The position numbers and the translations under genes were made by a program. The notes beneath the pieces were generated by a model, which saw nothing but the letters and a program-made list of their open reading frames with translations, was not told where the DNA came from and did not search any database. From assembly GCF_964355755.1 (NCBI RefSeq), contig NC_092673.1, positions 29,509,648 through 29,573,647 of the forward strand: a DNA stretch of 64,000 nt. The letters run 5' to 3'. Origin of the DNA: Antedon mediterranea. Its lineage: Eukaryota > Animalia > Echinodermata. Positions 116-64,000 of the stretch are shown here, piece after piece (positions within the stretch are counted from its first letter, which is position 1; each line of letters starts with the position of its first letter).

Positions 116-3100
116 ATACTACAGCACCAGTATTCACGTGCCCAACAATGGTGAACAAGTGTAACGACTATGGCCTTCCTTATGCTACCAACTTGACGTT
201 CTTTGACAGTATCACAGACAACTGTTGTCCTCAAAGTATATCAATGTCTATGGAAGAAACAATCAGCCAATTTGATATTGGAACCACAAATGCGACAATA
301 CTTATTGAAGACTGCAATGGAAACACAATAATATGTACAACTTTAGCTTATATTGAAGGTAAACACATAGCCTATGTACAGCCACAGAAAACACAAAAAA
401 CATGAAATCTGTCTATTCACAAAAGAATCTATACTGTATTTCACTTTACTTCTGTTTTATTTTTTGTTACCTTCTTAGTTTAGTTGTTTTGTATTTGTTG
501 TCTTGTTTTGCCCTGCATATGCTTGGTTCTCCAAGCTGTGACCTGGGATGTTTGTTACATTCTTAGTTTAGTTGTTTTGTATTTGTTGTCTTGTTTTGCC
601 CTGCATATGCTTGGTTCTCCAAGCTGTGACCTGGGATGTTTGGTACCTTCTTAGTTTAGTTGTTTTGTATTTATTGTCTTGTTTTGCCCTGCATATGCTT
701 GGTTCTCCAAGCTGTGACCTGGGATGTTTGTTACCTTCTTAGTTTAGTTGTTTTGTATTAGTTGTCTTGCTTTGCCCTGCATATGCTTGGTTCTCCAAGC
801 TGTGACCTGGGATGTTTGGTACCTTCTTAGTTTAGTTGTTTTGTATTTATTGTCTTGTTTTGCCCTGCATATGCTTGGTTCTCCAAGCTGTGACCTGGGA
901 TGTTTGTTACCTTCTTAGTTTAGTTGTTTTGTATTAGTTGTCTTGCTTTGCCCTGCATATGCTTGGTTCTCCAAGCTGTGACCTGGGATGTTTGGTACCT
1001 TCTTAGTTTAGTTGTTTTGTATTTGTTGTCTTGTTTTGCCCTGCATATGCTTGGTTCTCCAAGCTGTGACCTGGGATGTTTGTTACATTCTTAGTTTAGT
1101 TGTTTTGTATTTGTTGTCTTGTTTTGCCCTGCATATGCTTGGTTCTCCAAGCTGTGACCTGGGATGTTTGTTACCTTCTTATGTTTTTACTTTACAAATC
1201 CTTGCCAAATAGGAGGGTTGTTTGAAAGTTTTCCGTTTTGGAATTTTCTTATGTGGGGGATTTCTGAATAATAGTTTAATTGTATTAAACAGATGCCAGT
1301 AACTGGGATTTTCATAATTTAAGCAGAATTCAATTGAAATATACGTATTCCACAAGAATTTCTTCTTACAAAATTCCACTTTAAAGTTTTCCTCTCACCA
1401 TAGTATACCAATGGCACCCTATTATTAACATGGAATTTTTTTAATAATTAGGATCTTAACTCAAACAAATTGCAAGATACATTTTCTGGTGTTTGTATAT
1501 GTCGTGACGAAATGTGTTCCACTTATTGCTAAACATTACAGAAATATAAATTATTATTTCAGATTGTGATGCTCCACAGTTGACTTGTCCTGATAATTTT
1601 AACCTAACTGCTGATGAAAATTGTGAGGCTTCTATCACATGGGACCCAATTGATGTGTATGATAATTCTGGAGATATTCTTACTGTTGAGTGTGATTTTG
1701 ACAATGGTACACTTGTTACAACTGGAGATTACAATATAGCGTGCCGGGTGCAAGACTCTACTGGCAACAATGGCACCTGTGAATTTAACGTTGTAGTTAC
1801 AGGTATAATATCAATATTTAAGTGCCAGATCCACTGCTTCCAATTAATCATAAATATTATACTATATTGCTTGCTGAATTTAGAACTATATTATCAAACT
1901 TTATGTCTTGACAACATTGCTACATATAATATACACAATGCAAATAAAGCATGGAATACCTCCATGAATGCATAGCCATGAATTTTTAAATGAAGTTATG
2001 CATTTTGGAATAATGTAATGTAATTTTTTTGGGTAGAGGTTGGTCGGAATAACATCTCATTTCAAAGTATTCCACCCGGTCTTAAACTTATTGTAATACC
2101 TTCCACCATGCCTAATTTCAACAAACTTTGGTTAAATCTGTTTTATATTTTTCTACTCACCCCCTCACTTTTCAAGTTGCATGCTGCTATCAACATCACA
2201 TGTTCATATTCTTATATTATATTTTTACATTCAAAGAGTCCACTTCAATTAAATACATCACAGCATTTTCAAATTTTACTAAATCGTTTTCATATTCTGA
2301 TTTGTCAGATTCAACAGGTCCAGTACTGACTTGTCCTTCGGTAGTTGAAGGATGCAATGATGATGGACAAGCCAATGCTACTGTCATTTGGAATTTTGAA
2401 AATCCAACAGACAATTGCTGTGATAATATTAATGCAATCTCAAGTAACCAAAACGGAAGCATTTTTGATATTGGAACTACATTAGTTACGATTGAAGCTG
2501 CAGATTGCAATAACAACTTACAGATTTGTGAATTCAATGTTATTGTTAATGGTAAATATTTTCCATTTTTTTCATTCTGTATTCTTTATAAATTTTTCAA
2601 GATAATTTCATGCAGTCATCTTTTATTATGTGTATTCTGTTTGTTGTATGTCAAGTATATCAAATCCATTTTGACAACTCATAATATATTTGACAGATTG
2701 TGAAGATCCTGTAATCACTTGTCCCGATTCAGTTGAGTTGGTCGCTGGCCCTCAATGTACTGCTGTGTACACTTGGTCAGACCTTAATGTTGAGGACAAT
2801 GACCCAGACTCAATTGAGGTTGAATGTGACTACACATCTGGAGAAGCATTTGACGTTGGTACAACTTCTGTGGGTTGTACAGCTGTGGACAGTGCAGGCA
2901 ATCAAGATAATTGCACATTCACTGTCTATGTGTCTAGTATGTGATTAGCTTTTTTTACAAGGTCAAACAACTTTATAAATAGCAAAACATCTGGCAACAA
3001 AGTCTATTTAAGGCTCTGTACCTAGTCATTCTAGCCCAGTGATCTATTCAGGAAAGTTTTTCAACCTTAGTTAATTTGCAAATATACACATAGTATTTTG

Positions 3101-5400
3101 TGGAGTATCTACTTCTAATAATTTAGCAAACTTCTATTTATTTCCATTTAATGTTTTTTTTAGATTGTTCGTATCCTACTGTTAAATGTCCTGATGATGT
3201 AGAATTGGAGGCTGATGAAGATTGTAATGCTACTCTTTATTACAATGTCACTGCAACAGACACTGATAGCAATACTCTGGACCATGAATGTTCTTATGAG
3301 AGTGGAGTGGAGTTTAGTCTAGGAGAAACGGACGTAGTTAACTGCTCAGCCACTGATAATGGTGGTCGTGTAGGATACTGTCTCTTTGAAGTAGCAGTAA
3401 TAGGTTGGTATACTAATATGATATGAAATATCGGTTTGGTTTTTAACTACTACTGTATATAAACACTGGATTTTTAATTTAAGGTTAATACACAACACGC
3501 TGTCCCTGACTATACCTGTAGGTTTCATCCTTTGGATAGGATGTAAAGCTGTTGATCATATGTACATACATTGCACATGTGCACAATAAGGAAATTGGTA
3601 GACTACTTGAAAAGAGATTGTCTACTAGTGTGCTTAACATGGTCTTCTACTTAGCATTCTATGAGAACAGTCTTGTCCCAAATAAGTCACCCAGTATAAC
3701 AAAAATACATATTTTTTTTAAATCAAATATTTAAATTGTTATGAATGTACTTTTTATCATAGCCTCATTTGTTTAAAAGTTTCAGTTTATGTCCATGTTA
3801 GTTATAGTATAGTGATATTCCAAGCCTGATAACGTTTTGTGTTTTGTTTAGATACAACACCTCCGCTCATAGAATGCCCATTGGACCTGTCAGTATGTTC
3901 TGAACCTGATATCAATGGGAAAACGGTTTCTTGGAGTATGCCGAATGCTACAGATTTGTCCTGTACAAACATCACCATTAGTCCTAATACAAGTTATCAA
4001 TTTTTGGAAGTAGGCACACATCCTATTACATACTCTGCAGTAGATGGTTCTGGTAACAGTGAAAACTGTTCATTTAATGTCATAGTTATGGGTATGTATT
4101 CATATTTTAATTATTGGGCTAGCTTAAATTGCATTCACTTGTCCAATTACAGGAAAAGAAAAGGTTACTTCCTGGTGTCCAAAAGCGTCCTAACGTTGAT
4201 AGTTGGTCTGTAGGGTCCAAAGAACATAATTATTTCATCAAAAAAACCTTTTCTTAACATTAGATTGATTTAAAAGTCTATTTCCTGTTGATTAACGTGA
4301 AGAATTAAAACTTGGCTACATGACTGCACCATTTATTCAGAATTTCCTAAATAATTCTTCTGTATTCTTGATGTTTGTTCACAATAGTTATAAATTTTTT
4401 TTATTTCATTTTTTTTTCAGATTGTTCACCGCCAAACATTTCTTGTCCTAATACTATCACACTAGAAGCAGATTCCGAATGTAAAGGATACCCAAGGTAC
4501 ACTATTGAGGCCTCGGATAATGTGTTATTAGATTTACTGCCAACTTGCAGTGTAAACACTGGTTTGGAAGTACCATTAGGTTTAACAACTATTACTTGTA
4601 TTACCAATGATACGTCAGGCTTGGCATCCAACTGTTCATTTATTGTTGAAGTTGTAGGTGAGTATATGCTTAGTTTTTAAGTAGCTATTAGAAAATACTT
4701 TTTACCAGTGTACTTTCCATATGCACTTCTTAAAATTAAGCTGGTTCTTTTTTGTATGAACGAGACTCATGGTCACATGACCATTAGGAAAGAACAAATA
4801 AATTTTCCAAAAATGTTTTCCTCTTGTTTTTATATTAACTATCATTGGCAATTGCCAGATGAAGATTTGTTGAAAACAAATCGAAACGTCGCACACATAC
4901 ATGTTCATAAATGGTTTAACATAAAGAATTATATACAGATAGATTCCTACAGTATATACATAAAAATACATGACTTGAAATCATTGCTAAAAATTCACCT
5001 AACATTTTGAGCAAACAAAGCTGTGGTTTAAGATTTAGCAAGTGAAAACATTTACAATGCTAATAATTAGTAGAGTATCTGAACAATAACACCCTAGAGT
5101 GCACCAGATCAAGGTTCACACTTCATTACCATAAGACTTTTACAAGAATATTTTTTTTAACAGATGTAACTCCTCCAACGGCAGTTTGTGATGGACCAAT
5201 TTTTGTGACGGTTAACGATACTGACTCTTTACACTACGTTGAGTGGGATGCTACTATGTTTTCAGACAATTGTAGAGATGATCCATGGTTTAGTCCTAAT
5301 AGATCAGCGTACCTATCAGTAGGAGTCCATTATATACCATATATAGTAACAGATGATTCAGGAAATACTGAAAATTGCACTGTCATGATTGATATTGGGG
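116..5400 (+). CDS. Eight HYR-domain exons
   Basis: Exons 116-358, 1563-1802, 2309-2551, 2697-2936, 3164-3403, 3852-4091, 4421-4657, 5164-5400; each 237-243 nt and phase 1-1. Pattern D..P...CP ... G.T.V.C.A.D.SGN...C.F.V.V is typical of HYR. Confidence 0.9.
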
Positions 5401-8400
5401 GTGAGTTTGGTGTTTTCTTTTCTTCATGATATTCTTTGTGGAATAGTTTGTGACATCAACACTAGTTGATCATTCCTAGTACATTTTGGGAAAGTAACAG
5501 TAGTAACAATTGAATTAACAAAAATGCTGTCAATTTTTTTTCTTCATGAGACCATGCCAGTACACTATATAGTGTGTTTCTATTATATTGTTTTGTTTCA
5601 TTTGGACTGTTACCTAAAAAGGATTGTACATTGTAAAGTAGAAACAATGTACTAGAATGGTTTATAGTCAGCAGATTACATGGAAAATTCTTGACTTGTG
5701 TGCATAAACAGCAGCCCCTTAAGCTACTTTCACATCATGCCCGGATTCGGTCCGGTGCCCTGAGATGGGTTCAGTGGCAAAGCATAGCATCGTTAACACC
5801 AAATTCGTACAATTTTAATGTGTACCTGATTCCGAATTCGGTGAATTGATCAAGAAGCCAATTGTTTGCTAAAATCGTACAATTTTGTTCTTTTGACCAA
5901 TCAATAGTGAGCATGAATTACCTCGCTCGGATAACCGCATTCGTGCTTGTTGTGAAAGCAGCTTTAGTCCTGTACACACAGCATTTAATCATGTACATCC
6001 ATTTATATCCACTGCTTCCTTTGTTTACACATTAATGTATGTATAGTGGTGTAATATGGTAATCTCATTTGTTTATGAATACTTTTCATTGTTAAAATTG
6101 ATAATTCTATTATTTTCAGGCCCAACAACCACTCCACAAGTTACAGGTATTGGTTTGATAAAAATATTATATTTCTTTAACTATATAGCCTTTTTGAAGA
6201 AGCATATCCATAAGTAAAAATATATGTATAAATTGCAAGGATTAAGATGTTACAAATCTACTGAAAAGTGTGAAAATTACATGAAGTTAAAATAAAAGTC
6301 TTTGTAATATATGTGTATGTTTTAAGTGCTACTATTGGAATCTACCTGGAAAAATGAAGTTAGAAATGCAAATGGTCTTTGATTCCTGTTAAATCTTTTT
6401 TATTTAAAAAAAAAAAATTTAAAATTCTAGTTTTAAATACATAATGAGTTTTGCTAAAACCAGGATTTAGACACTTATTTAAGTGATTTTATTTCTACCA
6501 ATAGGAACTACAGACATTATTTTTACCGATATAACTGAAATAACGACTGAACAAACTACCATAAGTAAGTAAACAGGTAGAACTTAGAATCTAACATCTA
6601 CTAATACAACTGCAGTTAGAAATAAAACTAGTTAAGTTAATCATCTGATTAAACTATTTAAGTAAAGTGAATGGGTAGAACTTAGAATCTAACATCTACT
6701 AATACAACTGCAGTTTAAAATAAAACATGTTCAGATTAGACATATTTACAATAATTTACTTCTCACTGTAATAGGAACTAATGTCATTGCAACCGATATA
6801 ACTGAAATAGCGACTGATCAAACTACCTTAAGTAAGTAAACAGGTAGAACTTAGAATCTAACATCTACTAATACAACTGCAGTTAAAAATAAAACTTGTT
6901 CAGATTAGACATATTTAAAATAATTTATTTCTCACCGTAATAGGAACTAATGTCGTTGCAACCGATATAACTGAAATCCCCTCGACTGATCAAACTACCT
7001 TTAGCAAGTAAACAGGTAGAACTTAGAATCTAACATCTACTAATACAACTGCAGTTAAAAATAAAACTTGTTCAGATTAGACATATTTCAAATAATTTAT
7101 TTCTCACCATAATAGGAACTAATGTCATTGCAACCGATATAACTGAAATAGCGACTGATCAAACTACCTTTAGTAAGTAAACAGGTAGAACTTAGAATCT
7201 AACATCTACTAATACAATTGCAGTTTAAAATAAAACATGTTCAGATTAGACATATTTACATACTTCTCACTGTAATAGGAACTAATGTCATTGCAACCGA
7301 TATAACTGAAATAGCGACTGATCAAACTACCTTTAGTAAGTAAACAGGTAGAACTTAGAATCTAACATCTACTAATACAATTGCAGTTTAAAATAAAACA
7401 TGTTCAGATTAGACATATTTACATACTTCTCACTGTAATAGGAACTAATGTCGTTGCAACCGATATAACTGAAATACCATCGACTGATCAAACTACCTTA
7501 AGTAAGTAAACAGGTAGAACTTAGAATCTAACATCTACTAATACAACTGCAGTTAAAAATAAAACTTGTTCAGATTAGACATATTTAAAATAATTTATTT
7601 CTCACCGTAATAGGAACTAATGTTGTTGCAACCGATATAACTGAAATCCCATCGACTGATCAAACTACCTTTAGTAAGTAAACAGGAAGAACTTAGAATC
7701 TAACATCTACTAATACAACTGCAGTTAAAAATAAAACTTGTTCAGATTAGACATATTTCAAATAATTTATTTCTCACCGTAATAGGAACTAATGTTGTTG
7801 CAACCGATATAACTGAAATCCCATCGACTGATCAAACTACCTTTAGTAAGTAAACAGGTAGAACTTAGAATCTAACATCTACTAATACAACTGCAGTTAA
7901 AAATAAAACTTGTTCAGATTAGACATATTTCAAATAATTTATTTCTCACCGTAATAGGAACTAATGTCGTTGCAACCGATATAACTGAAATACCATCGAC
8001 TGATCAAACTACCTTTAGTAAGTAAACAGGTAGAACTTAGAATCTAACATCTACTAATACAACTGCAGTTAAAAATAAAACTTGTTCAGATTAGACATAT
8101 TTCAAATAATTTATTTCTCACCGTAATAGGAACTAATGTCGTTGCAACCGGTATAACTGAAATAGCGACTGATCAAACTACCTTAAGTAAGTAAACAGGT
8201 AGAACTTAGAATCTAACATCTACTAATACAACTGCAGTTAAAAATAAAACTTGTTCAGATTAGACATATTTAAAATAATTTATTTCTCACTGTAATAGGA
8301 ACTAATGTCATTGCAACCGATATAACTGAAATCCCATCGACTGATCAAACTACCTTAAGTAAGTAAACAGGTAGAACTTAGAATCTAACATCTACTAATA

Positions 8401-11400
8401 CAACTGCAGTTAAAAATAAAACTTGTTCAGATTAGACATATTTAAATTAATTTATTTCTCACCGTAATAGGAACTAATGTTGTTGCAACCGATATAACTG
8501 AAATCCCATTGACTGATCAAACTACTTTTAGTAAGTAAACAGGTAGAACTTAGAATCTAACATCTACTAATACAACTGCAGTTAAAAATAAAACTTGTTC
8601 AGATTAGACATATTTCAAATAATTTATTTCTCACCATAATAGGAACTAATGTCATTGCAACCGATATAACTGAAATAGCGACTGATCAAACTACCTTTAG
8701 TAAGTAAACAGGTAGAACTTAGAATCTAACATCTACTAATACAATTGCAGTTTAAAATAAAACATGTTCAGATTAGACATATTTACATACTTCTCACTGT
8801 AATACGAACTAATGTCATTGCAACCGATATAACTGAAATACCATCGACTGATCAAACTACCTTTAGTAAGTAAACAGGTAGAACTTAGAATCTAACATCT
8901 ACTAATACAACTGCAGTTAAAAATAAAACTTGTTCAGATTAGACATATTTAAAATAATTTATTTCTCACCGTAATAGGAACTAATGTCGTTGCAACCGAT
9001 ATAACTGAAATACCATCGACTGATCAAACTACCTTTAGTAAGTAAACAGGTAGAACTTAGAATCTAACATCTACTAATACAACTGCAGTTAAAAATAAAA
9101 CTTGTTCAGATTAGACATATTTAAAATAATTTATTTCTCACTGTAATAGGAACTAATGTCATTGCAACCGATATAACTGAAATACCACCGACTGATCAAA
9201 CTACCTTTAGTAAGTAAACAGGTAGAACTTAGAATCTAACATCTACTAATACAACTGCAGTTAAAAATAAAAATTGTTCAGATTAGACATATTTCAAATA
9301 ATTTATTTCTCACCGTAATAGGAACTAATGTTGTTGCAACCGATATAACTGAAATCCCATCGACTGATCAAACTACTTTTAGTAAGTAAACAGGTAGAAC
9401 TTAGAATCTAACATCTACTAATACAACTGCAGTTAAAAATAAAACTTGTTCAGATTAGACATATTTCAAATAATTTATTTCTCACCATAATAGGAACTAA
9501 TGTCATTGCAACCGATATAACTGAAATAGCGACTGATCAAACTACCTTTAGTAAGTAAACAGGTAGAACTTAGAATCTAACATCTACTAATACAATTGCA
9601 GTTTAAAATAAAACATGTTCAGATTAGACATATTTACATACTTCTCACTGTAATACGAACTAATGTCATTGCAACCGATATAACTGAAATACCATCGACT
9701 GATCAAACTACCTTTAGTAAGTAAACAGGTAGAACTTAGAATCTAACATCTACTAATACAACTGCAGTTAAAAATAAAACTTGTTCAGATTAGACATATT
9801 TCAAATAATTTATTTCTCACCGTAATAGGAACTAATGTCGTTGCAACCGATATAACTGAAATACCATCGACTGATCAAACTACCTTTAGTAAGTAAACAG
9901 GTAGAACTTAGAATCTAACATCTACTAATACAACTGCAGTTAAAAATAAAACTTGTTCAGATTAGACATATTTAAAATAATTTATTTCTCACTGTAATAG
10001 GAACTAATGTCATTGCAACCGATATAACTGAAATACCATCGACTGATCAAACTACCTTTAGTAAGTAAACAGATAGAACTTAGAATCTAACATCTACTAA
10101 TACAACTGCAGTTAAAAATAAAACTTGTTCGGATAGACATGTTTCAAATAATTTATTTCTCACCATAATAGGAACTAATGTTGTTGCAACCGATATAACT
10201 GAAATAGCGACTGATCAAACTACTTTAAGTAAGTAAACAGGTAGAACTTAGAATCTAACATCTACTAATACAACTGCAGTTAAATATAAAACTTGTTCGG
10301 ATTAGACATATTTCAAATAATTTATTTCTCACCATAATAGGAACTAATGTCATTGCAACCGATATAACTGAAATAGCGACTGATCAAACTACCTTTAGTA
10401 AGTAAACAGGTAGAACTTAGAATCTAACATCTACTAATACAACTGCAGTTAAAAATAAAACTTGTTCAGATTAGACATGTTTCAAATAATTTATTTCTCA
10501 CCATAATAGGAACTAATGTCGTTGCAACCGATATAACTGAAATAGCGACTGATCAAACTACCTTTAGTAAGTAAACAGGTAGAACTTAGAATCTAACATC
10601 TACTAATACAATTGCAGTTAAAAATAAAACTTGTTCAGATTAGACATATTTCAAATAATTTATTTCTCACCGTAATAAGAACTAATGTCGTTGCAACCGA
10701 TATAACTGAAATAGCGACTGATCAAACTACCTTTAGTAAGTAAACAGGTAGAACTTAGAATCTAACATATACTAATACAACTGCAGTTAAAAATAAAACA
10801 TGTTCAGATTAGACATATTTACAATAATTTATTTCTCATCATAATAGGAACTAATGTCGTTGCAACCGATATAACTGAAATAGCGACTGATCAAACTACC
10901 TTTAGTAAGTAAACAGGTAGAACTTAGAATCTAACATCTACTAATACAACTGCAGTTAAAAATAAAACTTGTTCAGATTAGACATGTTTCAAATAATTTA
11001 TTTCTCACCATAATAGGAACTAATGTCGTTGCAACCGATATAACTGAAATAGCGACTGATCAAACTACCTTTAGTAAGTAATACAGCTTCAGTTAAAAAT
11101 AAAATATAAAACTTGTTCAGTTAGATCAAACCACTTGCTGTAAGTAAATGGCTAGAACTAGATTGCAGTAAAGTTCCTCTATATCGCTCTGTCTTTTGCC
11201 GTCATCTCTTCAACAATTAGAGAAATTATGTTTATTGAAATGCTTTGTTGTCTGTTTTATGTTTGTGAACGAAAATTATGTGTTTAATTTTACTTTAGTA
11301 CAAATATAGTCTATGGCATGACTACTTTTATCTTGCTTTTTAAAACAGCTTTCTGCAAAATGTGATCAATTATTATTGATGCCTACTTTCATTTAAGTCC

Positions 11401-14400
11401 AAACTTAAGTGTTACTTGGACCACAAATAAGATGAATATTAATAAACACTTCATTAACTCAATTTCTTTTTAACAACTAACATTCTTGATTTATTTAAAA
11501 AAAAAAAATCCTCTATACTGTATGTTTTTTTTTCTATTATCATCTTCATCTAATGATATACACATTTATTTTTGCAGCACTGATCTTTTTCTGTTGTATT
11601 AACAAAAGCATCATTTTTTCTACATCAAATGCATTTATCATAGAAGTTTGCATTCAGCAGCATATTTACATACAGTATATATAGTATAATATTAATAATT
11701 TGTTTGATCCTCCCACTAGCAGGAATATTACTGGCACAATAATAATAATCAGCAAACAATAATATATTGACAAAAATGGTGATAGCGGGTAGCTAATCAA
11801 AGCTTATTAACATATTTTTTTCTAATAGGAGCCGTGTGGATTTTAAGCTTGGTTCTAACTTGGACACAGCGCAACAATGATGGGCAATCACAAGTGACAG
11901 TGATGATCCATGTTACTTGCATTGCGCTTTCATCTTTGCATTGCGCTTTTATCTTTGCATTGCGTCCCAATGGGAACCAAGCTAGGGAAGTAGACCTGCT
12001 CTAAGCCAGACGTACTTGTATAAGGAATTCTAAATATTTGAAGGGTTGCTACTACAGAAATAATGCTGAAAGTTCTTACCAATAAAGTACCACCAACTGT
12101 GGTGTTTATATTATCATTACTAAATAGATTATTCTTTGAGGGTACTATTTTTCGAATAGTTCCTTGATAAAACTGTACCTACCTATCCTCCTTGGACCCT
12201 TTGTCCCATAAGGCTACACATTTGCGATGCATTTGGTCTTTAGCTCTGTCCAAGATTCCTTTTCCATTTCAAAGCGTCCAGCTGTTTATTTAAAGATGTC
12301 CTGTTTCCTCCAGCCTTCTGGACACATGTTAAAGCTGTTGTACATTTATTTTTTTAATAAAAAAATTGGCAAATAGCCCAGATGTGGATACCTCTTGAAG
12401 TGCCTCTTTCGTGCAGTGCCTCAACAGTGGCAGCTATTTTCCATTCTCATGTACCCAATCCAATTACAATGTTATACTATTATGCTTTTTTGTATAGCTC
12501 CTGAAACGATAATCTACAAAGTGATCATTGCAATTAATGGTATTGATGGTATTGCAGACGATGCAATATTTGATAACAGTCTTGATGATGAAACCTCAGA
12601 TAGATACTCCTTATTTGCTGGATACACATGCTCAGCTGTAAGCAATAAATATAAACTTTTAACATTTTTATTCTAATCACTTTTTGTCATTATATAATTT
12701 TTTTTTTCTTTTTTTGCTTTCTCTTAACTTTCAAAATGGTAGACTAATGAATGGATTCAGTCATTATTGTAATAATCTTTGTCTTTTTTAGATTGAAAAT
12801 TCCCTCGACAATACTTTTGATGACTATGTAAATTGTAATGCAACAGGATTTTCCAACGGAAGCATTATAGCAAGTGCTGATGTATGGTTTTTGGCAAACA
12901 CTAATATATCTGCTGCTATGGTACAAAATCAGTTGAGGGTAGATGCAGAGGATGACCTCACTACACTTGAGGGTGTTGTTATAAATGTTATAATATCAAG
13001 CATAATAGTAACAGGTGAGAATATTTGCCAAATGAAGGGCCATCTGACCACTTGACAGAACTCACTTACCTATAACCCAAACATACTCCTAAACATAGCA
13101 GCTCTAGGGCTTTTATAAATCATGGAATATAGAGTAATTGCAAAATACATAAATGATTTATTACACCTATCTATGTAATACAAGAAATGGAAGTCAACTT
13201 TTGGAAACTATGGGCTACTTATCAGTGTATCAGTAATCGGTTAGGTACATACTGTAAGATATCAAGTCCTCCTTCAAAATATGTCTCAAAGAAATTGAGG
13301 TCATTAAGGTCCGCCTCTATCTAAAATGCAAATCTTACACAATAATTCACTAACTAAATTTTTTTTCTTCTTTTTCTTTCCGGAAACAGACCCAGGTATG
13401 AATTTTTAATTATTATTTAAAGTTAATAATATGGTGCATTTTGGACAATCGTATCTTTATTTATATTACCACAGGTGTACAAATTTAATGAAATATTTTA
13501 TTTTATTTTTCACAGCTGACCTAGCCATAACAACTGAAGTCACAACAAGTAAGTCTAATATTTCAAAGTAGTGAAACTATTTAATTATTTTACATATATG
13601 ATTGTTGACTCTAGATGTAACCAGTACAGGTGTACAAATTTAATGAAACATTTTATTTTAATTTTCACAGCTGACCTAGCCACAACAACTGAAGTCACAA
13701 CGAGTAAGTTTAATATTTCAAAGTAGTGAAATTATTTAATTATTTTACATATATGATCGTTGACTCTAGATGTAACCAGTACAGGTGTACCAATTTAATC
13801 ATTAATCTTATTTTATTTTACACAGCTACCCCAACTCCAACACCCGAAGTCCTACGTAAGTCTAATACATTAGTAGTGATACTAACAATTTAACATTATT
13901 TTGTTAAATAGGATTTTTTTTACCAACTGGATCAAGTAAAACAATTATTTATCTGATAAAATCGGAATTTTTTAAATAAAAAAAGTAAACTTCTTGTTTT
14001 TTTTTATATAAATAGAATCATTGTTTGATGCTTCTTTTTTTTCTTTTAAAGTCTGCTTTGCTTTTGAGTTTCAATGTCAGTCGGGTGGTGTTCAAACATG
14101 TTTCCCAGATTTCTGGATTTGTGACTACATTTCTGACTGTGATGACAATGCAGATGAGATTAATTGTAAGTTGTTGGAAGTTTTTCGGTAGAATGTGTAA
14201 ACCTTAATTTTAACGCTAAATTTGGACAGAGCAGTATGGTATAAAATGCTGTATATACTACGAACAATACTGAATGACAATAAACAGATAAATAGAGTTT
14301 TCTTGCATAAAACAAAATTAATTGGAAAAGTTTTTGATCAAATAACGATATTATGTGTTGATCAAGGTTCTATACTGAGGAGAACAATTCTTTGTTTTAA

Positions 14401-17400
14401 ATTCGCCCATTTTGTAAAAATACATTGAGAACCATATTTTCACGAATTTAAAATGAAAACTTTAACTGAAGGGTATAAAAAATGGAAAAATATGTTTTGC
14501 CAAATAGTAAAAAAAATTCTCTTTTGTTTAATCATACAAGATCAATTCTATCTATTATTATAATGTTGTTTATGTAAAATAATTAATAAACTGTTTTGTA
14601 CTAATTTTGTACAATAAATGTTGTTTACCATTTTAATAGGTTTTACAATTAATTTTGATTTGTTTATGATGAGAGCATGTCATATCTTTGATAGGTCCTC
14701 CGTGTGGAGAAAATAGTTACCAGTGTCCGTTCGACTCTTGTATCCCAGACAGCTGGCTTTGTGATGATATTGCAGATTGTTTCGATTTCTCCGATGAATC
14801 ATTCGAGCTTTGCGCAGGTAACATTTTCTTTTTGTTAAGTTAGACTAGGCTTATTGAAACTGATCATCAAGAAAATGTTTAGTTTCTATCCTATTTATAT
14901 TTCTTATACCCAAAAATGTAATTCTGTCTTTTTTGCTACCATAAACTACAGAATAGGAATTTTTTTTGTAGAAAACTTTTTTTTAATAAACATGATAACA
15001 TTAGAAAAATGTTACGCAAGTTAAGTATACATTATATGCGTAATTGTTTACACAAAGCAGTATATATTACACCCTCATTATAATATAATACGAATGTGTA
15101 ACGCACCAATTCCAGCAGTAAGTGAGGAGCGGTGTATGAGAGAGCTCAATCTGAAAGAAAAAGATGAGTTTTCAAGGCAGATTTAAAGGTGATAGTTATA
15201 GCAAAAATCAACAATTATCTCAGAAGAGATATTAAACTAAAAATATTTTGATGCATTTTGAAATAGAATAGAAATCTGTTTGATCTTCTGTGCCATTCAG
15301 TACACATGATAACGCATTGTTGAAAGAATAAGTATTAATATATATGCATCACTTTTGGTTTACTCAAAGTTTATATACTTTGATACAATTCTATACAATT
15401 CTACTTTCCTTTAAATTCAATTTAAAAACACACCTTTTTTTAGAATTTGTATTGACCTAATTACTTTATTCTCAATTTGGAATTGGCGCTATATAAATTT
15501 CTGTTATGAATATTATTATATACCTACAGCAATGCATGTCCTAGTTGATTAACATGTAAACATTATTTTACAGGCCAATGTATTTCACCATTCCCTCCGG
15601 ACAATGGCATTATTTTGGGAATAGCATACGAGTTCTACTTGAATGGCGATACTATAGGATATGACTGTTTTAGTGGGTACTCATTGATAGGACCATCCAA
15701 TAGTACTTGCTTAAATGGAAATTTCACGGAAGTTCCAACTTGTCGAGGTGAGTAAATTCTTGTGATCCGGTTCAATGGCTGGGAAAAAAATCATGGAAAA
15801 TGGGATTAGTATCAAAATAAAACCATTCACACTATGTCATTCCAGACTAAGTGTATGTGTGTAATCAATGAAATGTAACACAGCTTTACTCTCATTGCCT
15901 CGTTCTTTAGATGGAACATAAAGCTGTTGGTCCTGTATATATACTTTGACTCATTACACTATTGAATGAATGAGTAGGTAATCATCTACCAATCATATAA
16001 TAGTCTTACACACTGGACCCTTTGAGAGAACAGTCTGTACTAAAGAGGAATAAATAGTAATAATAAATAAACTTGTTTTACAGAGGATTGCTCGCTTCCA
16101 CCAGCTCCAGATCAAGGAACTGTATCAGGTTCTATAGTTCATGGCCAGAACATAACCTTTGAATGTGAAGAGGGGTATGTTACTACAATGGGTCCAAGCA
16201 CAATCACGTCTCAGTGTATGGATGGCGGTTATGATGTTACAACAGTAGTCTGTAAAGGTAGCTAAGTTACAATAAATTAAACAATTTTCCAAATAAAGTT
16301 TCGTTTTTAGTGTTTGTGTGTGAAGATCTTTGGTGTGCGGTCACCTCTTCCTATGTTGTGTAATTTATTGAGTATGGTCTAATGATTAACATTTTAAAAA
16401 GCGAAAACATCACATAAAAATGGTAACAATTAAAAAAGAAAATAAACATAATTTGTTTGTTTCAGATTTCAATGAATGCACATCTGGGGAAAACAATTGT
16501 CACAACATGGCGATTTGTACCAACATATTGGGTAGTTTCTCATGTGAATGTATGGGAGGCTATACTGGTGATGGAACCAGCGACTGCACAGGTAGGTACT
16601 ACTGTACACTATACCTTTAAGCTCTGTCTACACTATCAAACTTTATGTGACAAAAAAATGTGATGTGCCCATATATGGACACGATGTCGTATCAAAAACA
16701 TATTTACTTTGGTAATGTAGACAGACCTTTACACAACCTACGATTTTTCAGATTTATCTTAATATATAAAGGTTAAGTTTTATAATAATTTGTAGGTGCC
16801 TTTAACATTTTGGAATTGGCACTAACTTTTGGAACTAGTCACAATTAAAATAGATTAAGAAATCTCTAAATCTTGTAGTACATGAAAAACATTTTGTGTA
16901 GATGATAATGCTGTTTAACAATGACATCAATGACAAATGACAGATATGTATATAAAAGTTTTGACATTTTTTTTATGTAAAATGTTACTGTATAGATATT
17001 GATGAATGTAAGAACAACGACACCTGTCCACTTCTTACTAGTACATGTACCAACACAAATGGAAGCTTTTATTGTGTTTGCAATGAAGGGTATGAGGAGT
17101 CTTATGGCCAGTGTGTCGGTATGTGAAACATCTAATATTTCTGAATTGTTTTTGTGTGTCTAGGTATGTCAAAGGTCATTCAATTTGTTAAATTATGTTC
17201 AAAATTATACACACAATTGTATTTTATTGACGATGAAGGAAATTCAGTTAATATCCCTTTTAATGCCCACCATATCCTCAATGAAGTGCCTACCATTATC
17301 ATTATATTCCCAACGGCAATATTCTTTTCGAAGGTAGGTAGAAATTGTCTAAAGGTTTGCATGGCGAAATCAAATGTTGATATAAAGTTTATGGTACACT

Positions 17401-20400
17401 ACATATATTAGTTCGGAAAAGAACTGTTGAGTTTCTCTACGTTTTGATCAATATGTTTTGATCGTCCTCAGTAGTGTTGTATCGCAAATTTTAAATCAAT
17501 ATAGAATTTATGTCTTCCTCTATCTTAAGTGTTGAGTGTACATGTTGTCTAACTGAAAACACTTTTCAACGTCTGTGTAGCCATCCAATCACTCATAAGC
17601 AGACGCATTTTGATGCAGATGCATTCACACACATCATTCCAATTACATTAATATAACATCTTAAGAAAACATTCCTAGAAAATTGTAAACCTTCTGTGAA
17701 TTAACAATTTTGTTTTGTGTTTCAGAAATTGTATTGTGTGATTATGGAGTGGAAGCTGGTGATTTATTGCTGAGTATGCACGGAGGTGATTCTGGAAATT
17801 CTGTAGAAGACCTTATTTCTGAACGATTCTTTCCTCCTATTGGTTTTCCATTTGGAAGTCAATACTTTGGTGTCATTTATGTAAGACTTTTGTTTAGTTG
17901 AATAAAACATCTCAGTTTTATGATTATGATTCATGCAAAGCACTGATTCTGAACGGTTCTTTGGATTGTATGCATCTAATTCATATTTATTCTATTTTAG
18001 TTTACTGAAAATGGTTTGATACTATTTGCACAAAAAGGTCAAACTCTATATTCAAATCCTCATCCACCCCAGAATGGACTAAGTGCGATGACTGATAGTC
18101 CTCTTGTTGCACCATTCTGGGCAGATGCTGACAATACACTTAATAGTGGAGAAGTGTACTACCAGGTAAGTTAATTTACCTACCGAGCTAGCTCTACCTA
18201 ACTAGCACTGACTAGCTACCTAGGTAGCTACCTAACTAGCTACCTAGCTAATGCTACTTTAGTTAACTAGCTACCTAACTAGCTACCTACCTACTGTAGC
18301 TAGCTACCTAACTAGCTACCTACCTACTTAAATCAATCAAATACGTTTCAACCCCTTTTTATCCTCACCTGATCTAGAATTTATCAACAAAAGCTCCGAT
18401 GGAAAAACACAACACCCAACAAAATTATAACCGCCAACAAAATGCAAACTAATAGTTTTCACAAAATGTTACATGTGGAACCTCTGTTTGCAGTCCTCTC
18501 AATCAACAAGCTTTGATTAGAAAACAAAACGCATAAACAAAATTAACTTTGTGAATTAAAAGAGAATAATACTGAACTTGGAATTAAATAGTGAAAAAAT
18601 CTCACCACACTCGGCTGGAAAGTAGATTTAACTTACTCATATTTAAAGTGTGTTAGTCCTTTGATTGTGTCACATACATTATTTCATTGCTTTTACATTT
18701 ACTTTAAGGTATATGACATGAACAACAATCCTGGTCTTCTCAACAAAGTATCAGCAATAGTGCAAACATCAAATGTTTCAGATGATTGCAGTTTTGTGAA
18801 AGAAAGTTTTAGTGGCACCTGGATGTTAATTGTGACCTGGACGGGAATACCGCAGCAACCAGCTGAAAGTAATCCAGATACGGTATGTCAATTATTACAT
18901 TAGAATTTAAATTATTTGTTTAATGATAATAATTCTCTATATTATACATAGCTAGCTATGAAAAGTATTGTAATGTTTAGTTCGTTTTTGTTGTAGTACA
19001 TAGTACATTTTATGTGTATCCTCACCGTTTGATTGGTTGTACATATCACATGGTGCAGTGTATTATTTCGAACCATTCTCACGATTATGTACTGTAGTAC
19101 ATTACTTTTTTTTAAACAAAAAAATGTTTGGGAAATGCAAGGCTGGCGACTGATAGAAAAGTGTGCATCATTTGAATCAGCTCTACTCTAAATTTTGATG
19201 CCTAGCTTGCCTAAATATTGTTATAAAACAAATAATGAATGATAATTTATGAGTGAAATGGATAGAATATGTTTATTATTTAAAAGATAACCTGGTCTGT
19301 TGAACCTTACATACTATATGTTGTTTTTTTTTACAGGTCAACACATATCAGGCTATTTTGATAACGGATGGTACATATTCATTTTCCTTGTTCAACTACA
19401 GGATCAATGCAATGAGGTGGAACGCTGATGTATTGATTTACAAAGATGTCATTATAGGCTTTAATACTTTATATGATGGTACACAGGAATATGTCAATGC
19501 TCAGTACAGTTTCCCAAATGAAACAAGTCGTTACAGACCCGATCAATTCATAGGTAATACAGGTAACCAGGCTCGTTGGATCTACCGGCTTGAAAAGAAC
19601 TGTCCATGGACACCCAATCCACGCCAGGTGTGTTTAGACTGGTATAATATGCAGATCAATCCAATCTTTTGGAACAGTAATCGATTGGTTTGCCCATGGA
19701 CTTTTGGCCAAGCAAGATCAGATTCACGGTACTCCGACGCAACAAGCATTCAGAAATTGGCCCGTTTTATGATTCGATTTGCTGCTACAGAATACGAAGT
19801 AGAAATTCTAAATCAAATTGACATTCAACAAGGTAAAGGTCAATTTTATACCTTAGATATAAACTCAAATGGAAACTTTTTAATGTAATTTTTAATCCCT
19901 TTTGACATATAATAAACAGTAGGCCTAATTCCAATTCATAAATTGCCAATTTTTACAATTTGTTTGAGATGGTTTAATCTAATAATAAGTATATAATAAT
20001 TGTAAGTTATGATTAAAAATTAATATTTTTACATTTTGATATTTTCAGCAATCATTATTTCTCCTACAATCCAGGAATTAATGTTTAAGTCTAATATGCT
20101 ATCGTTAAATTTAATCGAACCATATTAACTTATATTAACTGTGATGTATGTACAAAAAATATCAAATTATTTTTGCAGAGGATGCAAGGTGTTTTCAATT
20201 GGCAACCCCATCACGAAGGTATTCTGGTGCGCGATGCTGTTACCGTACCAATGGTACATTTATTGCTGGATATGAAAAGTTTTGGAGAAGTAGCTTCTTG
20301 GAACGTTTCCATATTAACCGAGGTTTTTGGAATTGGCTCTGTAAGTAATTTTCGGTTTTGAAATAAGTTTACTTGCTTGTTGTATAAATACTAAATTTGA

Positions 20401-23400
20401 TTTTCACTAAAATGATGATTCCAGGTGGCTTGTACAGGTGCATTCATATGATGGTGCATATGTTAATTTATTCAATTAATTACTGTTAAGCGAAGCATAT
20501 AAATAAAACGTTATTAAATTAGGATCAAACATGGATTACAACATTAGCTCTCATAACCTCAATTATCTCAGTTACATCTTTACCTTGAAAAATGGAATCC
20601 AATCATTTTTTGGTATTTTTTTTCTTTTATGTGATCCATTAATGTTCGTTAAAAATGTAAAATATTGAAATGATATATTGCTAATCTTTAACTATTTGCT
20701 ATTGTAAAAAGACAGCGTATCCACCAAAAAACGTGATCTCACCTAAAATTTTTATTTTATGGAAATCATTGGATTTTTTGTTTAGAGTTCAATTTATAAG
20801 GAGTTCACCATATTTGATATTACTTAACTTTTAATAGATCAAGAAGTTGTACCACAATATTCCTGTTGCACACAATCTCAGGATGAAGATTTCTGCAAAC
20901 TGTATGAAGAACAACGCCCTGAAGCTTCATTCATTCGTTACAGACCCCCAAGAACTTGTAAGTCATAGTTTTTAAGCAAATCAAAACAACTTTAATCAAT
21001 TCAATTCAATTTATTCCGGGTTTTACAATACAAACAATAATATCATCATTGTATGCTAGAACTGGGGGACCCCAACAGCAAACTCTGGCTCTTATAATGT
21101 ATTAAAATGTATAACAAATTATATTTTTTCTAAATCTTATTTATATCTTGATCCGTACTTGTCTTTTCCATACATTTTTTTTTTATGACCTATTCATTAT
21201 CATATCTATTTTTTTAAGGCTAGCCCAACACAAGATTCATCCTTCAAGGCATCTACCTTTAAACTCTGACCTATTGCTTTTTACTCTCATTCACTAATTA
21301 TTTGTTTAATAATTTTTATTTTTTTTAGCCTTTACACGTGGGGATCCTCACATGACGACTCTAGATAATTACGATTACACATTCAACGGTCATGGCGAAT
21401 TTGTTCTTGAGGAAGTAGATTTAGGAGATGGTAGAGTGTTTATTGTCCAGTCCAGAATGGAAACACCGCAGTTTGATTCAAACAGTGACATAAAAGCTAC
21501 CATTTTCACCTCTTTTGTTGGAGCTATCGATGATGGAACTAGGGTAAAATACTTTGTCTTTTGTAAACTAAAACTATTTAAATATGGATATTTTGACTGT
21601 GGATAAAGCATGAATGACTCTCCTAATGCCCCATCCTGACCGTCGTATACAGACACCTACTTTCTATTGAGAGTAATACACTGTAATAGGTCACATCAAA
21701 TCCAGATATGTTTTTTGGCAAATGGATGAATGATCTTCTTTCCCGGGGAGGGTGGGGGTGCAACAACCACTTCCTGGCAAAAAGGGAACCATATGTGACA
21801 GGGTTTTCGATAACATAGGTGGCTAATTTTTATTGATTCAAAAGTAATATTCCTTTAGCTTAGCATCTAGTATAGCTAATATTGTGCGATAAATCGTGAC
21901 ATTTTGACACATTTGACCTATTTTAGGTTGAAATCAGATTGACTAGCAATAGTCCAGAGATTGGACTTTTTTTTAAACTTTTATTTTACTTACTCTGGAT
22001 GCACCTTCATTCAAGATTCTTATTATTATTGCTAGTACACTGTAATAGCCCATAGTCATGTCCAAAAAAACGTTTTTTAATGAATGAATGATGTTCTGTA
22101 GAACTAAAGGTTTTTTCACCTAATTTAGGTTGAAATCAGGTTGACTAGCGATAGTCTGGATATTGAAATATTAGTTAACGGAACACTAATTGACAAGGCT
22201 GCATTAGACAATGGTAAGAATCTTCTTGTTTTACCCAATGATCAAAATTACTAGTAAAATTAATCTTTCATTACTCGACAATGATTATTAAAGAATTTGA
22301 TATTTTACTATCCACTGTTTATACAGCTTATTTGATCTTGTCCAAGCTTTTATTTGAATAATTTGAATTTATCTGTATTTCATTGTGAAATAAAATCGAA
22401 TGAATGGAAGAGCATTGAAAATCATGATATGTTTTTGTATGTCTTTTAGTTACTTACACAAGTGAGTTGGACTTTGATTTCACTGTGTCTAAAATATCTG
22501 GTGAATACATAAATGCAAATGGAACTGATCGTTACATTGCTACATGGAATTCGGATGTTGGATTTTCTGTGGCCGTTTCTGAAAAGATGTTAAATATAAT
22601 GTTCCAACTTGATGATGTCTACTTGGGAGATGCCAAAGGTCTTTTCGGTAATTATCATCATTATTATTATCATTAATTCTTATTGACCTTATAAATCATC
22701 ATCATTATCTATATAGTTTTTTTATTAGTGCCATAACTTTAACTTCTAAATCTAAGTAGTGTCCCAGTAGATTAACTTATATTGCTTCTAGTGCGGGCCC
22801 CAGTTATTATTGTCAAATAACTGAATGTGTGTGTGTATGAATGAATGAATTAATAATAAATTATTTCAACACGGTAAAGTTGAATCACACAAAAGTGTTT
22901 TTCATCAAGGCGCAAGTCTGTAAATGAATTTTAACATGATGATAACAATATAAGTATACCTTGGTTGTGTTATCAGCAATGATACTATGGACGAACTGGA
23001 TATTAAAAGCCAATATCGATCATTATGTATTAGAGGTAACTCTCTGTGTAGAAAATTTAGTAAATGCTCAACAGATGTTAAGATTACTTTGTTTAAGTCA
23101 TACTGTATTAGTATGTATTGTGCGGCCTTATGGTGCGATTTTAATGTAAAAACTATGAAGTCATTACAGGTCTGTTATAATAACGCACTTAGAAAGATTT
23201 TAAGACGCTCAAGGAGCTGTAGTGCTAGTGCTATGTTTGTTGATAACCATGTTCCCTCCTTCTATGAGTACATTCGGAAATCAATTTTTTGTTTCAAAAC
23301 AAAAATTGAAAAAAGCTGTAATACTTTAATTACATGTGTTTTTTCTCGTATTCTAAAAGATTCAAAGTTGCATAGAAAATGGATAGAACTTTTGTACATA

Positions 23401-26400
23401 TAATCTCATGTATACTTTTACGTGTGTTAACTAGTATCAGTATAGCCATAATAATGTGTTGTTTTGTAAACTACAGTAATCAATAATATAATAATGTCTA
23501 CAGTCTACATCCAATAAATCCCAAAACATAATCCACATGTATTTTAAGAGGCACTATATGTCAACAAATAATTATTAGTCCTCTCTCCATGACGGTTGTC
23601 ACATAATGCCTTGTATTATTTTTTATTGTATTTATATGTTTCATAAAGTTGAATTGAATTGAATTGAATTAATAAAAAACTAAAGTCAATATGATAAAGG
23701 AAATATTATAAAATCGATCATTGATTATTAATATGATTTAGAATTTTCGTAAATATATACAAATTTATCTGTAAATTTGTTTTGACAGGTCGATGGGATG
23801 ATGATGCATCAAATGATTTAGAGATGAGGAACGGGACAGTTCTTACACCATCACCAGGACAAAACTTAACTGATATGCAGATCTTTGAATTTGGACTTAC
23901 ATGTAATTCATTTCTTTATAAATGTTTTGCCTTAATCTGACATGTACTTGGTAATAAGTACATTTGCAAGTGACTCTCCAGTGGAAATAAAACCTACAAC
24001 CTTCAGATCACTAGCCTGGTGTTCATATCTCTAGACCAACACTGATAACAGCCTTATATGATGATATCATTCAAATTGATAGTGTTCATAAAATTCATGT
24101 TCATGTATTGCTTTTGCAACAAACACATTTTTGTTTCGTGTACAATTTTAAAAATAAATGAATCAATGAATATATTGTTGTTTATCCAGAATTGAAAGGT
24201 AGAGAGGGTAAAATGCATTTGGTTATTGCCCTTTGATGGCTGTCTCAAAGTGCAGTTTTTGTTTTGTTTTTACTCATTTGTTTTCCAATTGTTCATAGGG
24301 AGAATAACTGAAGAGGAATCGCTCTTCACTTATGATGATGGAAGGTCATACAGCAATATCAATGACCTGACCTTTGAACCAACCTTCCTTAGCGATCTTA
24401 TAGCAGAAAATGAGAATACTGACTTATACAGCAATGCTCAGGCAACTTGTGGATCCAATATGCAGTGCTTATTTGATGCTCTTGCTACTAAAAATGTTAA
24501 TATCGGTGCAAATACTCTCAACACGGATCAAGTCATTATTGAAGATATCAATTTGTTAGGTAAGATGCAAGCATTAATTCTAAAACAATTGGCACATTAA
24601 GCTGAGGCATGGTTGTCTATTAATTACGTTATTTTGTAGTTTTTTAAGTTTATTTACGATGTAAACAAAACTTTATTGTCACAGTGGAATCAGCTATGAG
24701 ACAAGATCTTTATTAAATGCAATCAAGTTTGTAAAATCACTATTGTTTATCACTTTACTTAAAATTCCTAAAATATTTTTTTCTAGAAAATTTTCCACCA
24801 AATATCACTAATGTGATTGATCCTGATAACATATTGAATGGCACAGACGTCTTGAAGGTAATGGTAGGATCCACATATTCCTTCCAAGTTGAGGCAAATG
24901 ACCAGAATGGTGATCCAATTACTTTTGGTTTGCTAAATGCTGTTGGAGGAGCTTCGGTAGATCCCTCTAGTAAGTAATGTATTTATTTATTTATTAGTGC
25001 ATAATAAATATTTAAGAGTTGAATGAGAAGAATATTTTCAGAGAGATCAATTTTCTTTTAAATTGAGACAAAGTAGAACCATTTAATAGAACTTTGACTG
25101 TGTGGTAGAAACTGAGCAACACATGATATAAATTAACCAATCAGAGAGTAAAGACACTCATAATCGTAAACATTGTATTAGCCTATCATGCATAGTCTCT
25201 CTGCTATTTTCAATTAGGAATTTTTAAATAAATTTAGGTAAGGATGTAGAAAGAAAAAGAAAGAAAAGTTCAAGATAGGAGTCTGTGTATAAATTTGTTA
25301 TGGAATATAATATAATATTTATACTATTTGAATTTTGTTGTTGCGAATATTGTTTCATGCATAATAGTATTGTGTTATTCATTGTTCTATATTTAGCTGG
25401 TGAAGTTACCTGGACACCAGGAAATACCAATTCAGTCAATTTTGGCGTTGTAGCCTCTGACGGAATGGCCAGTAGTGCCTTAGTGTTTGAAGTGCGGATT
25501 TGTGAATGTCTAAATGGTGGAGTCTGTGATTTCAACACATTGGCTCAAGGGTCACTTGTATTGGATAACAAGTTTGCAGTTAGTATTATGTTCTATTTTT
25601 ATTTTATTTCTAAAGAAGTATATTTTGTCTTAAGCTCTGTCTACACTCTTAAACAACAAAATGTGATATGCCCACATATGGACACAATGACATCATATCA
25701 CATTTGGGCACATTTGTTGTCGAACTTCTGTAGTTTAATAGTGTAGACAGAGCTTACATTAACTATGGTGGTTGTCAAGTAATCGGCACTTTCTGTGATT
25801 GCTGAATGTTACAATACAATATATGTTATTCTTTGCAATTGCTTTTTACAATAAATGTCTTTCTTTCCTCTAAGGTTGTGGTTTGTGACTGCCCTGCAGC
25901 ATATTCAGGCAATAATTGTGGGGAGGACTTTGATGCTTGTCTTGATAGTCCATGCTTTCCAACAGTCTTATGCACAGATAATCCGGCACCCAATCCGAAT
26001 GCTACTTGCGATAGCTGTCCAGAAGGGACTGTTGGCAATGGATTTAAGTGCTACGGTTAGTATTTGCTTTGTATATTACTCTGTTCTGTACTTCTTGAAA
26101 GAGAGAGACTCTATTTTACAACAAACTCAAGAAAGTCATTCATACTGAGTTTGGGGGAAACACATGCTAAACAACATGTCTACACTATCAATCTAGTGTG
26201 ACAAAAAGTGTGATGTGCCCATATATGGACATATTATATATTATCATTACTACCATATTTAGGCACATCACACTTTTTGTCACACTAGTTTGATAGTGTA
26301 GACATAGCTTTATAGTGTGAGTCAATTTCAATCTCAATCAATACAAACAACTATAAATTTTGTGTATAGAGCTAACTTATTTTACACATAATGTTCTTTA

Positions 26401-44162: not shown

Positions 44163-44664
44163 GTAAAGTTGCCTAGTTTAAAAAACGTATTTCAACGACA
44201 TAAATTATGAATCATATAGCAAATAGGCCTAGCCTAGGCCTATATGAAATGTAGTTAGTACCAAAATCAACGGCATATTATTTTATCAGATATAGGCCTA
44301 GCCTAGGCCTACTCTTATCATAATATTAGCCTAGGCCTAGCCTAAAAGAGGATGCCTAGCTAGCTAGCTGTAGAAGTAAGTAGGGCCAGGCTAGGCCTAC
44401 CTAGCTAGGCCTAGCCTAGTAGTAATATTACTACTAGGTTAGGTAGGGGCTAGGAGGCCTACCAGCCTAGCCAGGTAGTCTGAGATGGCATAGCCTAGGC
44501 CTAGACTAGAGACGGAATTTGAGTTGAGTATTGTTTTGTTACTAAATACTAGGCTAGCTACTACTAGGCCTAGGCTATATTATTATTCATATTTGCCCAG
44601 GTTAGGCCAACTATGTATGTAGTACTTTCTCATATTTTCAGAATTGGATAAAGCCTACTACAAT

Positions 44665-56406: not shown

Positions 56407-56463
56407 ACACACATGTTCTAAGAAAGAAAGACAAATGTACTTAATTGTTATCAAATGTTCTGA

Positions 56464-63900: not shown

Positions 63901-64000
63901 CCTGCGAAATCACCCAAGAAAAGAAGCACTCCAAAAGCCTCTACTCCTGTGAAGTCACCCAAGAAAAGTAGCACTCCAAAAGCCTCTACTCCTGCGAAGT
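57910..64000 (+). CDS. MKI67: Proliferation marker Ki-67-like protein (FHA domain, PP1-binding motif, basic S/T-P repeats); continues beyond the window
   Basis: Exons 57910-58001, 58395-58476, 60142-60257, 61721-62442, 62829-62896, 63029-63149, 63395 to beyond 64000. FHA reads MPLHGKIVVIKRNGADGAHFPL...CLFGR..ECDIRIQL..VS.EHC...NLSATNPTLLNG...DRSFRFEY; KRKRVSFGPNLSPEHFDKKLPPSTPLRRG matches the Ki-67/RepoMan PP1-binding domain. Confidence 0.88.
58632..59956. mobile_element. Tc1/mariner-type non-autonomous element (about 1.3 kb)
   Basis: TA|cagtcaactctcccaataccggac ... gtccggtattgggagagttgactg|TA; sub-terminal tccggtttt repeats. Confidence 0.88.
60461..61666. mobile_element. PIF/Harbinger-like non-autonomous element (about 1.2 kb)
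   Basis: TTA|ggccaaataaaaaaacatacttgttaagcgtcac ... gtgacgcttaacaagtatttttttttatttggcc|TTA. Confidence 0.85.
62591..62769. mobile_element. Short MITE related to 58632-59956
   Basis: cagtaaactctcccaataccggac ... gtctggtactgggagagtttacta. Confidence 0.75.
63805..64000 (+). repeat. Coding 45-bp tandem repeat (STP(V/A)KSPKK(S/R)STPKA)
   Basis: Period 45 nt (63811, 63856, 63901, 63946); continues to the window end. Confidence 0.92.

Follow-up and report, generated by a model that had tools for sequence, protein, structure and literature searches.

We analysed a 64,000-nucleotide stretch of the Antedon mediterranea genome (RefSeq assembly GCF_964355755.1, contig NC_092673.1, positions 29,509,648 to 29,573,647, forward strand), here called the window, within which all coordinates below are given. 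From the start of the window to a stop codon near 42,777, a predicted gene can be followed as one open frame of 3,734 amino acids (aa) in 86 exons, and 24 of these exons are units of a tandem array. The exons were chosen by hand and script, and the gene start lies upstream of the window, so 3,734 aa is a minimum. We propose, with a probability of roughly 0.7, that the array is made up of short coding exons, that these are spliced into transcripts of this predicted large membrane protein, and that they would form there a spacer whose length is set mainly by the allele, most live exons being included.

Tandem Repeats Finder (TRF) reported the array as a 172-bp tandem repeat at 6645-11086 (26.2 copies, 94% matches). 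Parsing divided 6505-11073 into 27 exon-like units with lengths of 57 or 60 nt and without stops in the phase 1-1 frame, as an initial annotation of this DNA had described them; unit 2 has stops in both other frames. The same annotation had given every unit an AG acceptor and a GT donor, which held for 23 of the 27. Unit 3 is AG/GC, and units 14, 19, and 25 have no acceptor AG, the preceding intron ending in TAC (units 14 and 19) or TAA (unit 25). The upstream cryptic AGs near these three dead units would all shift the frame. Counting AG with either GT or GC, 24 exons are usable, the number originally annotated, and each repeat unit is its own exon. Unit spacing is 163 to 172 bp as annotated, except for the 270 bp from unit 1 to unit 2; the first intron measures 210 nt and holds the decayed remnant of a unit. 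Read-through into the intron gives Ser-Lys-stop in all 27 units, among which there are 15 exon sequence types. The features of the array and its 5′ flank are as follows (X1 is the sequencing run described in the next section):

6120..6146, + strand: linker exon of 27 nt, Thr/Pro-rich, phase 1-1; joined to the end of an HYR exon and to unit 1 in record 1 of X1
6505..6564, + strand: array unit 1, an exon of 60 nt that has diverged; present once in the window, spliced in X1
6645..6680, + strand: what is left of another, decayed unit (3′ end of the exon and donor region) inside intron 1; from alignment and from a 98-bp duplication
6775..11073, + strand: array units 2 to 27, 57/60-nt exons with 106- to 112-nt introns; from unit parsing, with an exon-exon junction in X1

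Splicing of the repeat exons

The region is present in contigs of five sequencing runs, four from one sample and the fifth, X1, from another sample and study. X1 was labelled "RNA? (a guess)" and X2 to X4 are DNA runs; these four were compared over positions 6440-6940 (501 bases). Record 1 of X1 (178 nt; depth, 35.1) begins with a loose 5′ end, of which the 30 letters listed match the last 5 nt of the HYR exon and 25 nt of the linker exon, and continues into unit 1 with 0 mismatches, two introns having been removed at their GT-AG ends. In X1, the end of an array exon of the common unit type is also joined to the start of an array exon (6829 to 6775; depth, 155.8), which is the junction that the initial annotation had predicted for RNA; it had named a lack of joins between repeat exons as the result that would speak against it, and this junction contradicts such a lack. 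Neither this joint nor the HYR-linker-unit 1 joint is among the records listed for any of the three DNA runs. The exon-to-intron depth ratio was 11.7 in X1 and 1.7 to 2.2 in the DNA runs, contig depth being a poor measure.

Thus, the repeat exons are spliced to each other and, on the 5′ side of the array, to the host gene, and the guess that X1 is an RNA run is borne out by its spliced contigs. The array units are real exons, with chance excluded, because RNA-type contigs join them at the predicted sites and not because of their motifs. The same contigs rule out a non-coding satellite. Two other measures were dropped: the zero depth of X1 on unique introns, because DNA runs X2 and X4 show the same holes, and summed contig depth as a count of exons per transcript.

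The encoded stalk and its length

Together, the 24 usable exons code for 469 aa (Thr, 31.1%; Ser plus Thr, 33.3%; Pro, 2.8%; Asp plus Glu, 15.4%), close to the initial annotation's ∼470 aa of acidic sequence with ∼30% Thr; Arg is the first residue of each repeat. They would form a Thr-rich, acidic, and probably O-glycosylated (predicted) spacer that separates the HYR repeats from the first SEA domain by up to ∼470 residues. In the glycocalyx, such a spacer would keep the HYR head apart from the SEA/NIDO/AMOP/VWD body. Motifs alone predict cleavage at SEA and at GDPH.

Two models of the crinoid Anneissia japonica allow a comparison. A search with the NIDO exon gave one match, XP_033122076.1 (P0001; 55% identity), which is collinear with the host gene from NIDO to the tail. 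XP_033125734.1 (P0002, "hyalin-like isoform X3") has nine HYR and three SEA domains and a closely similar tail, and it passes from HYR to SEA through about ten residues where Antedon has the array stalk. Neither model, both of them automatic and on separate contigs, contains the array repeat. Because of the ten-residue link in P0002, the stalk may be a lineage-specific expansion.

Among units 2 to 27, diversity is 0.040 in exons and 0.039 in introns. Indel events number two in exons (both 3 nt) and two in introns (6 and 1 nt), which leaves little of the contrast in indels between exons and introns that had been annotated. Units 12 to 15 differ from units 17 to 20 by 1, 0, 1, and 0 changes, against a mean of 7.4 between units; the mean distance between units is lowest at an offset of five, and one dead acceptor is common to units 14 and 19. 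Judged by these alignments, there was a recent duplication of a five-unit block, with one dead acceptor copied along, and the unequal crossover suggested earlier gains support from it. Equal diversity and the block duplication together indicate that exon and intron were duplicated together and homogenised; a single exon-plus-intron unit would have been multiplied and homogenised through unequal crossing-over.

The RNA run carries a further sign of turnover. In record 1 of X1, a second exon of the unit-1 type comes directly after unit 1, with which it agrees over 56 nt before departing from it in the five letters that end the record. The window has one exon of this type, and X3 spans unit 1 with one unbranched contig. 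We read the join most simply as the mark of a longer allele in another animal, although it may also stem from repetition of the exon in RNA or from a graph-walk effect during contig building. Together, the block duplication, the dead units, the remnant unit, and this extra exon point to copy-number turnover. As all the exons are phase 1-1, the frame survives when a unit is gained, lost, or left with a dead acceptor, and dead units are harmless if skipped. Stalk length would for this reason be set mainly by the allele, as copy number minus dead units.

Several observations weigh against a coding stalk of allele-determined length. The RNA support comes from one RNA-type run with short contigs, covering the 5′ end of the array (501 bases); the reference's own unit-1/unit-2 joint is absent among the X1 records listed, and X1 also has unspliced exon-intron contigs (depth, 23 to 79). 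Among copies, the exons are no more conserved than the introns. Depth in X3 is 12 to 16 per assembled array copy versus 24 for the unique flank, which could reflect a second allele with fewer units, biased coverage, or an assembly that is too long; 27 units may thus not be the number on both chromosomes. P0002, an automatic model without the central NIDO-EGF part, could be a paralogue or could have missed a stalk of its own. Finally, the composition of the stalk lies under the values usual for PTS (Pro/Thr/Ser) domains, in which Ser and Thr together typically make up 40% or more and Pro often exceeds 5% (PMC4948705). By its predicted sequence, the stalk is mucin-like and not a textbook PTS domain. 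The earlier term "mucin" stalk was overstated in the strict PTS sense (33% Ser plus Thr, 2.8% Pro).

An alternative is that stalk length is tuned mainly in RNA, with variable subsets of exons skipped and perhaps exons repeated as proposed for the SmPoMuc mucins of Schistosoma mansoni, so that each animal would show a length ladder. The array acceptors are weak: with a matrix made from the gene's other exons, they score a mean of 0.2 bits, compared with a leave-one-out mean of 8.9 (minimum, 2.1) for the 61 other acceptors of the gene, and in a ranking with 1,728 decoy AGs they fall at the 72nd percentile. Units 14, 19, and 25 must already be skipped, and the join of unit 1 to a unit-1-type exon in X1 is missing from the window. 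However, the matrix is crude (an AG 40 nt upstream scores 6.2, above the AG used in RNA), and the differing last letters of the second unit-1-type copy fit a second genomic copy better than exon repetition. No skipping joint was seen in the X1 contigs over 6440-6940, a stretch unable to show most of them. Exon symmetry, which the initial annotation offered as evidence of skipping, was overstated as such: phase 1-1 is the default of this gene (45 of 61 non-array exons) and for that reason says nothing for skipping. We consider tuning mainly in RNA unlikely. Its fullest form, in which RNA-level skipping and repetition of micro-exons let a free-living deuterostome produce a whole ladder of stalk lengths in its glycocalyx from a single allele, is more doubtful again; if it were true, the X1 join would be exon repetition of the SmPoMuc kind and the weak acceptors a tuning device. 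Under the allele-based reading that we prefer, most live exons would be included, some leaky skipping is likely because the acceptors are weak, and regulated skipping is hypothetical.

The expansion could also be near-neutral: the exons would be spliced simply owing to the splice sites present in each unit, and the added spacer would be tolerated with no particular role. Equal exon and intron diversity, common non-synonymous variants, the dead units, and the lack of a stalk in P0002 are in keeping with this. Nevertheless, all 27 exons are free of stop codons and frameshifts, even the diverged unit 1, which is still Thr-rich and acidic, and each SEA domain of the host gene is flanked by Thr-rich spacers; selection among copies, moreover, would be masked by concerted evolution. 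Near-neutral expansion is, in our judgement, improbable. Least credible of all is a switch between membrane-bound and secreted forms, in which translation would stop at once after intron retention or use of an upstream cryptic acceptor, so that a HYR protein with a tail of variable length is set free: the Ser-Lys-stop read-through of every unit, the better-scoring AG 40 nt upstream (which would give a stop at the next codon), and the exon-intron contigs in X1 suit it, but the unspliced signal per copy is low (∼7, from one intron contig, versus 35 for the spliced one) and can be explained by pre-mRNA or carried-over DNA, and transcripts stopping in the array would probably be degraded by nonsense-mediated decay, as prematurely stopped transcripts are.

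Host gene and neighbouring genes

The host gene has 83 AG/GT and 2 AG/GC splice sites of 85, and its RNA-checked joints are the HYR-linker-unit 1 and array exon-exon joints only. Its domain order is eight HYR, linker, array, SEA, micro-exons, two LDLa, two Sushi, two EGF, NIDO, AMOP-like, and VWD-like with GDPH, followed by the EGF series, Ser/Thr exons, SEA, a hydrophobic segment, and the tail. Outside the array, the features are as follows:

116..5400, + strand: eight HYR-type exons, 237 to 243 nt, phase 1-1; Pfam HYR above cut-off in 3 of 3 exons scanned
12498..13014, + strand: SEA-like domain, two exons, GSII motif; 48% identity to P0002
13390..13855, + strand: second small cluster, Thr-rich micro-exons of 6, 33, 33, and 30 nt; predicted
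14052..17118, + strand: LDLa (two), Sushi (two), and EGF (two) exons; Pfam LDLa and Sushi above cut-off (one exon of each scanned)
17726..24969, + strand: NIDO, AMOP-like, and VWD-like module with GDPH; Pfam NIDO
25397..42777, + strand: EGF series, SEA-like region, Ser/Thr-rich exons, SEA, tiny exons, hydrophobic segment, cytoplasmic tail, and stop; collinear with P0001

Pfam recognised NIDO at 40.4 bits (cut-off, 25). With single exons, AMOP (17.8 bits; cut-off, 25; E = 0.0037) and VWD (19.8 bits; cut-off, 22.9; E = 0.0011) were sub-threshold, and GDPH is present; P0001 gave no AMOP or VWD match in Pfam at E 0.05. The single SEA-like exons of 12498..13014 had no match in Pfam, and P0002 has three SEA stretches above the cut-off. 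The EGF exons are collinear with those of P0001, and one transmembrane (TM) segment is provided by a hydrophobic run, judged by eye, in the exon at 40893-41188. A protein search with an HYR exon, itself a weak search, yielded nothing among 6 candidates, and an ESM Atlas search with residues 20-640 of P0001 no usable match. Proteins P0003 to P0008, among them an axolotl "mucin-1" (P0003) and what looks like an unrelated repeat protein (P0007), were left out.

Several repeats and duplications accompany these exons. The SEA exon pairs at 12498-13014 and 38590-39318 are clearly similar and equal in phase, which suggests internal duplication of the pair, and each is followed by tiny exons (6 to 33 nt; 18, 15, and 12 nt). 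Two of the micro-exons at 13390-13855 lie within a 155-bp exon-plus-intron repeat of 2.3 copies, which resembles an array in its first stages. At 37167-37457, a Thr-rich 15-bp repeat (19 copies) lies within one exon, so the same gene combines single-exon and exon-per-repeat designs. By eye, we also noted that the first part of exon 22129-22213, acceptor included, is partly duplicated ∼200 nt upstream (∼21925-21975), and a recurring interspersed element of ∼130 to 170 nt with inverted ends in the introns near ∼16620, 25630, 26180, 34175, 36670, 39370, 41600, and 42125, which we take to be similar to a miniature inverted-repeat transposable element.

Elsewhere in the window, TRF found tandem arrays at 463-1186 (88 bp, 8.2 copies), 32347-32689 (42 bp, 8.1 copies), and 47800-48327 (29 bp, 18.2 copies). 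The next gene (∼44640-56410) encodes an AAA ATPase with a GPPGTGKT Walker A motif, presumably fidgetin-like. The third (∼57910-64000) encodes a probable FHA-domain protein with Lys/Thr/Pro/Ser-rich repeats and a KRVSF motif, which we assume to be Ki-67-like.

Comparison with known systems

The host gene is MUC4-like in layout only. It shares with MUC4/SUSD2-type proteins the NIDO, AMOP-like, and VWD-like domains with GDPH, the EGF domains, one hydrophobic segment, and a Thr-rich repeat N-terminal to NIDO, and differs from them in its extra HYR, SEA, LDLa, and Sushi modules and in its ∼20 EGF exons. MUC4 reportedly has its repeat within one large exon, and Xenopus FIM-B.1 is reportedly a precedent for splicing of repetitive units. 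In 2006, one large exon for the repeat domain was stated for all mucins then described, and a divided PTS domain was noted in zebrafish (PMC1552070). Xenopus FIM-C.1 shows polymorphism by alternative splicing (PMC7177656); a looser parallel is chicken MUC2, with one in-frame PTS splice variant and 69-aa repeats (PMC3549977). A phrase search of the literature for splicing of repetitive units in mucins found nothing. In the crinoid-mucin literature, judged from listings and parts of PMC10381214 and with subscription papers mostly outside, there was no description of the host gene.

In Schistosoma mansoni, SmPoMuc genes carry up to ∼20 tandem copies of an exon and its flanking intron, the introns being >93% alike; they undergo concerted evolution, and repeat number varies between individuals (Roger et al. 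2008, PMC2576457). The Antedon array likewise has homogenised exon-plus-intron units in tandem. In SmPoMuc, however, a 27-bp exon sits in 1-kb units, whereas here exons of 57/60 nt sit in 170-bp units, and SmPoMuc is a parasite multigene family with transcripts of up to 100 repeats, whereas here one locus was seen.

Chicken Muc13 has a repeat domain N-terminal to SEA with one exon per repeat and at least 12 repeats of 20 aa, supported by one expressed sequence tag; Lang, Hansson, and Samuelsson (2006) proposed that its length varies through both recombination and splicing (PMC1552070). Both are membrane proteins with an exon-per-repeat stalk before SEA. Muc13 is a small vertebrate protein (PTS, SEA, TM), whereas the echinoderm protein is a 3,700-aa mosaic of HYR, LDLa, Sushi, NIDO, AMOP, VWD, and EGF domains, and its repeat is acidic with little Pro; the Antedon array, moreover, is assembled in full, so that its dead units can be seen. 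The novelty claimed by the initial annotation was thus overstated: Muc13 already has 20-aa repeats, one exon each, beside SEA, and drew the same hypothesis (PMC1552070). Both the exon-per-repeat design and the idea of splicing plus recombination have been published, for chicken Muc13 (PMC1552070) and for SmPoMuc (PMC2576457). The design of this array is not itself new; the array is of value because it allows splicing and recombination to be cleanly told apart as sources of mucin length. It is a coding array that resembles satellite DNA, assembled in full and supported by RNA, and a warning that repeat masking can remove coding exons. With 15 exon sequence types among its 27 units, the exons present in any one transcript could be identified from long reads, and the question raised for Muc13 in 2006, whether splicing or only recombination sets mucin length, is directly testable here.

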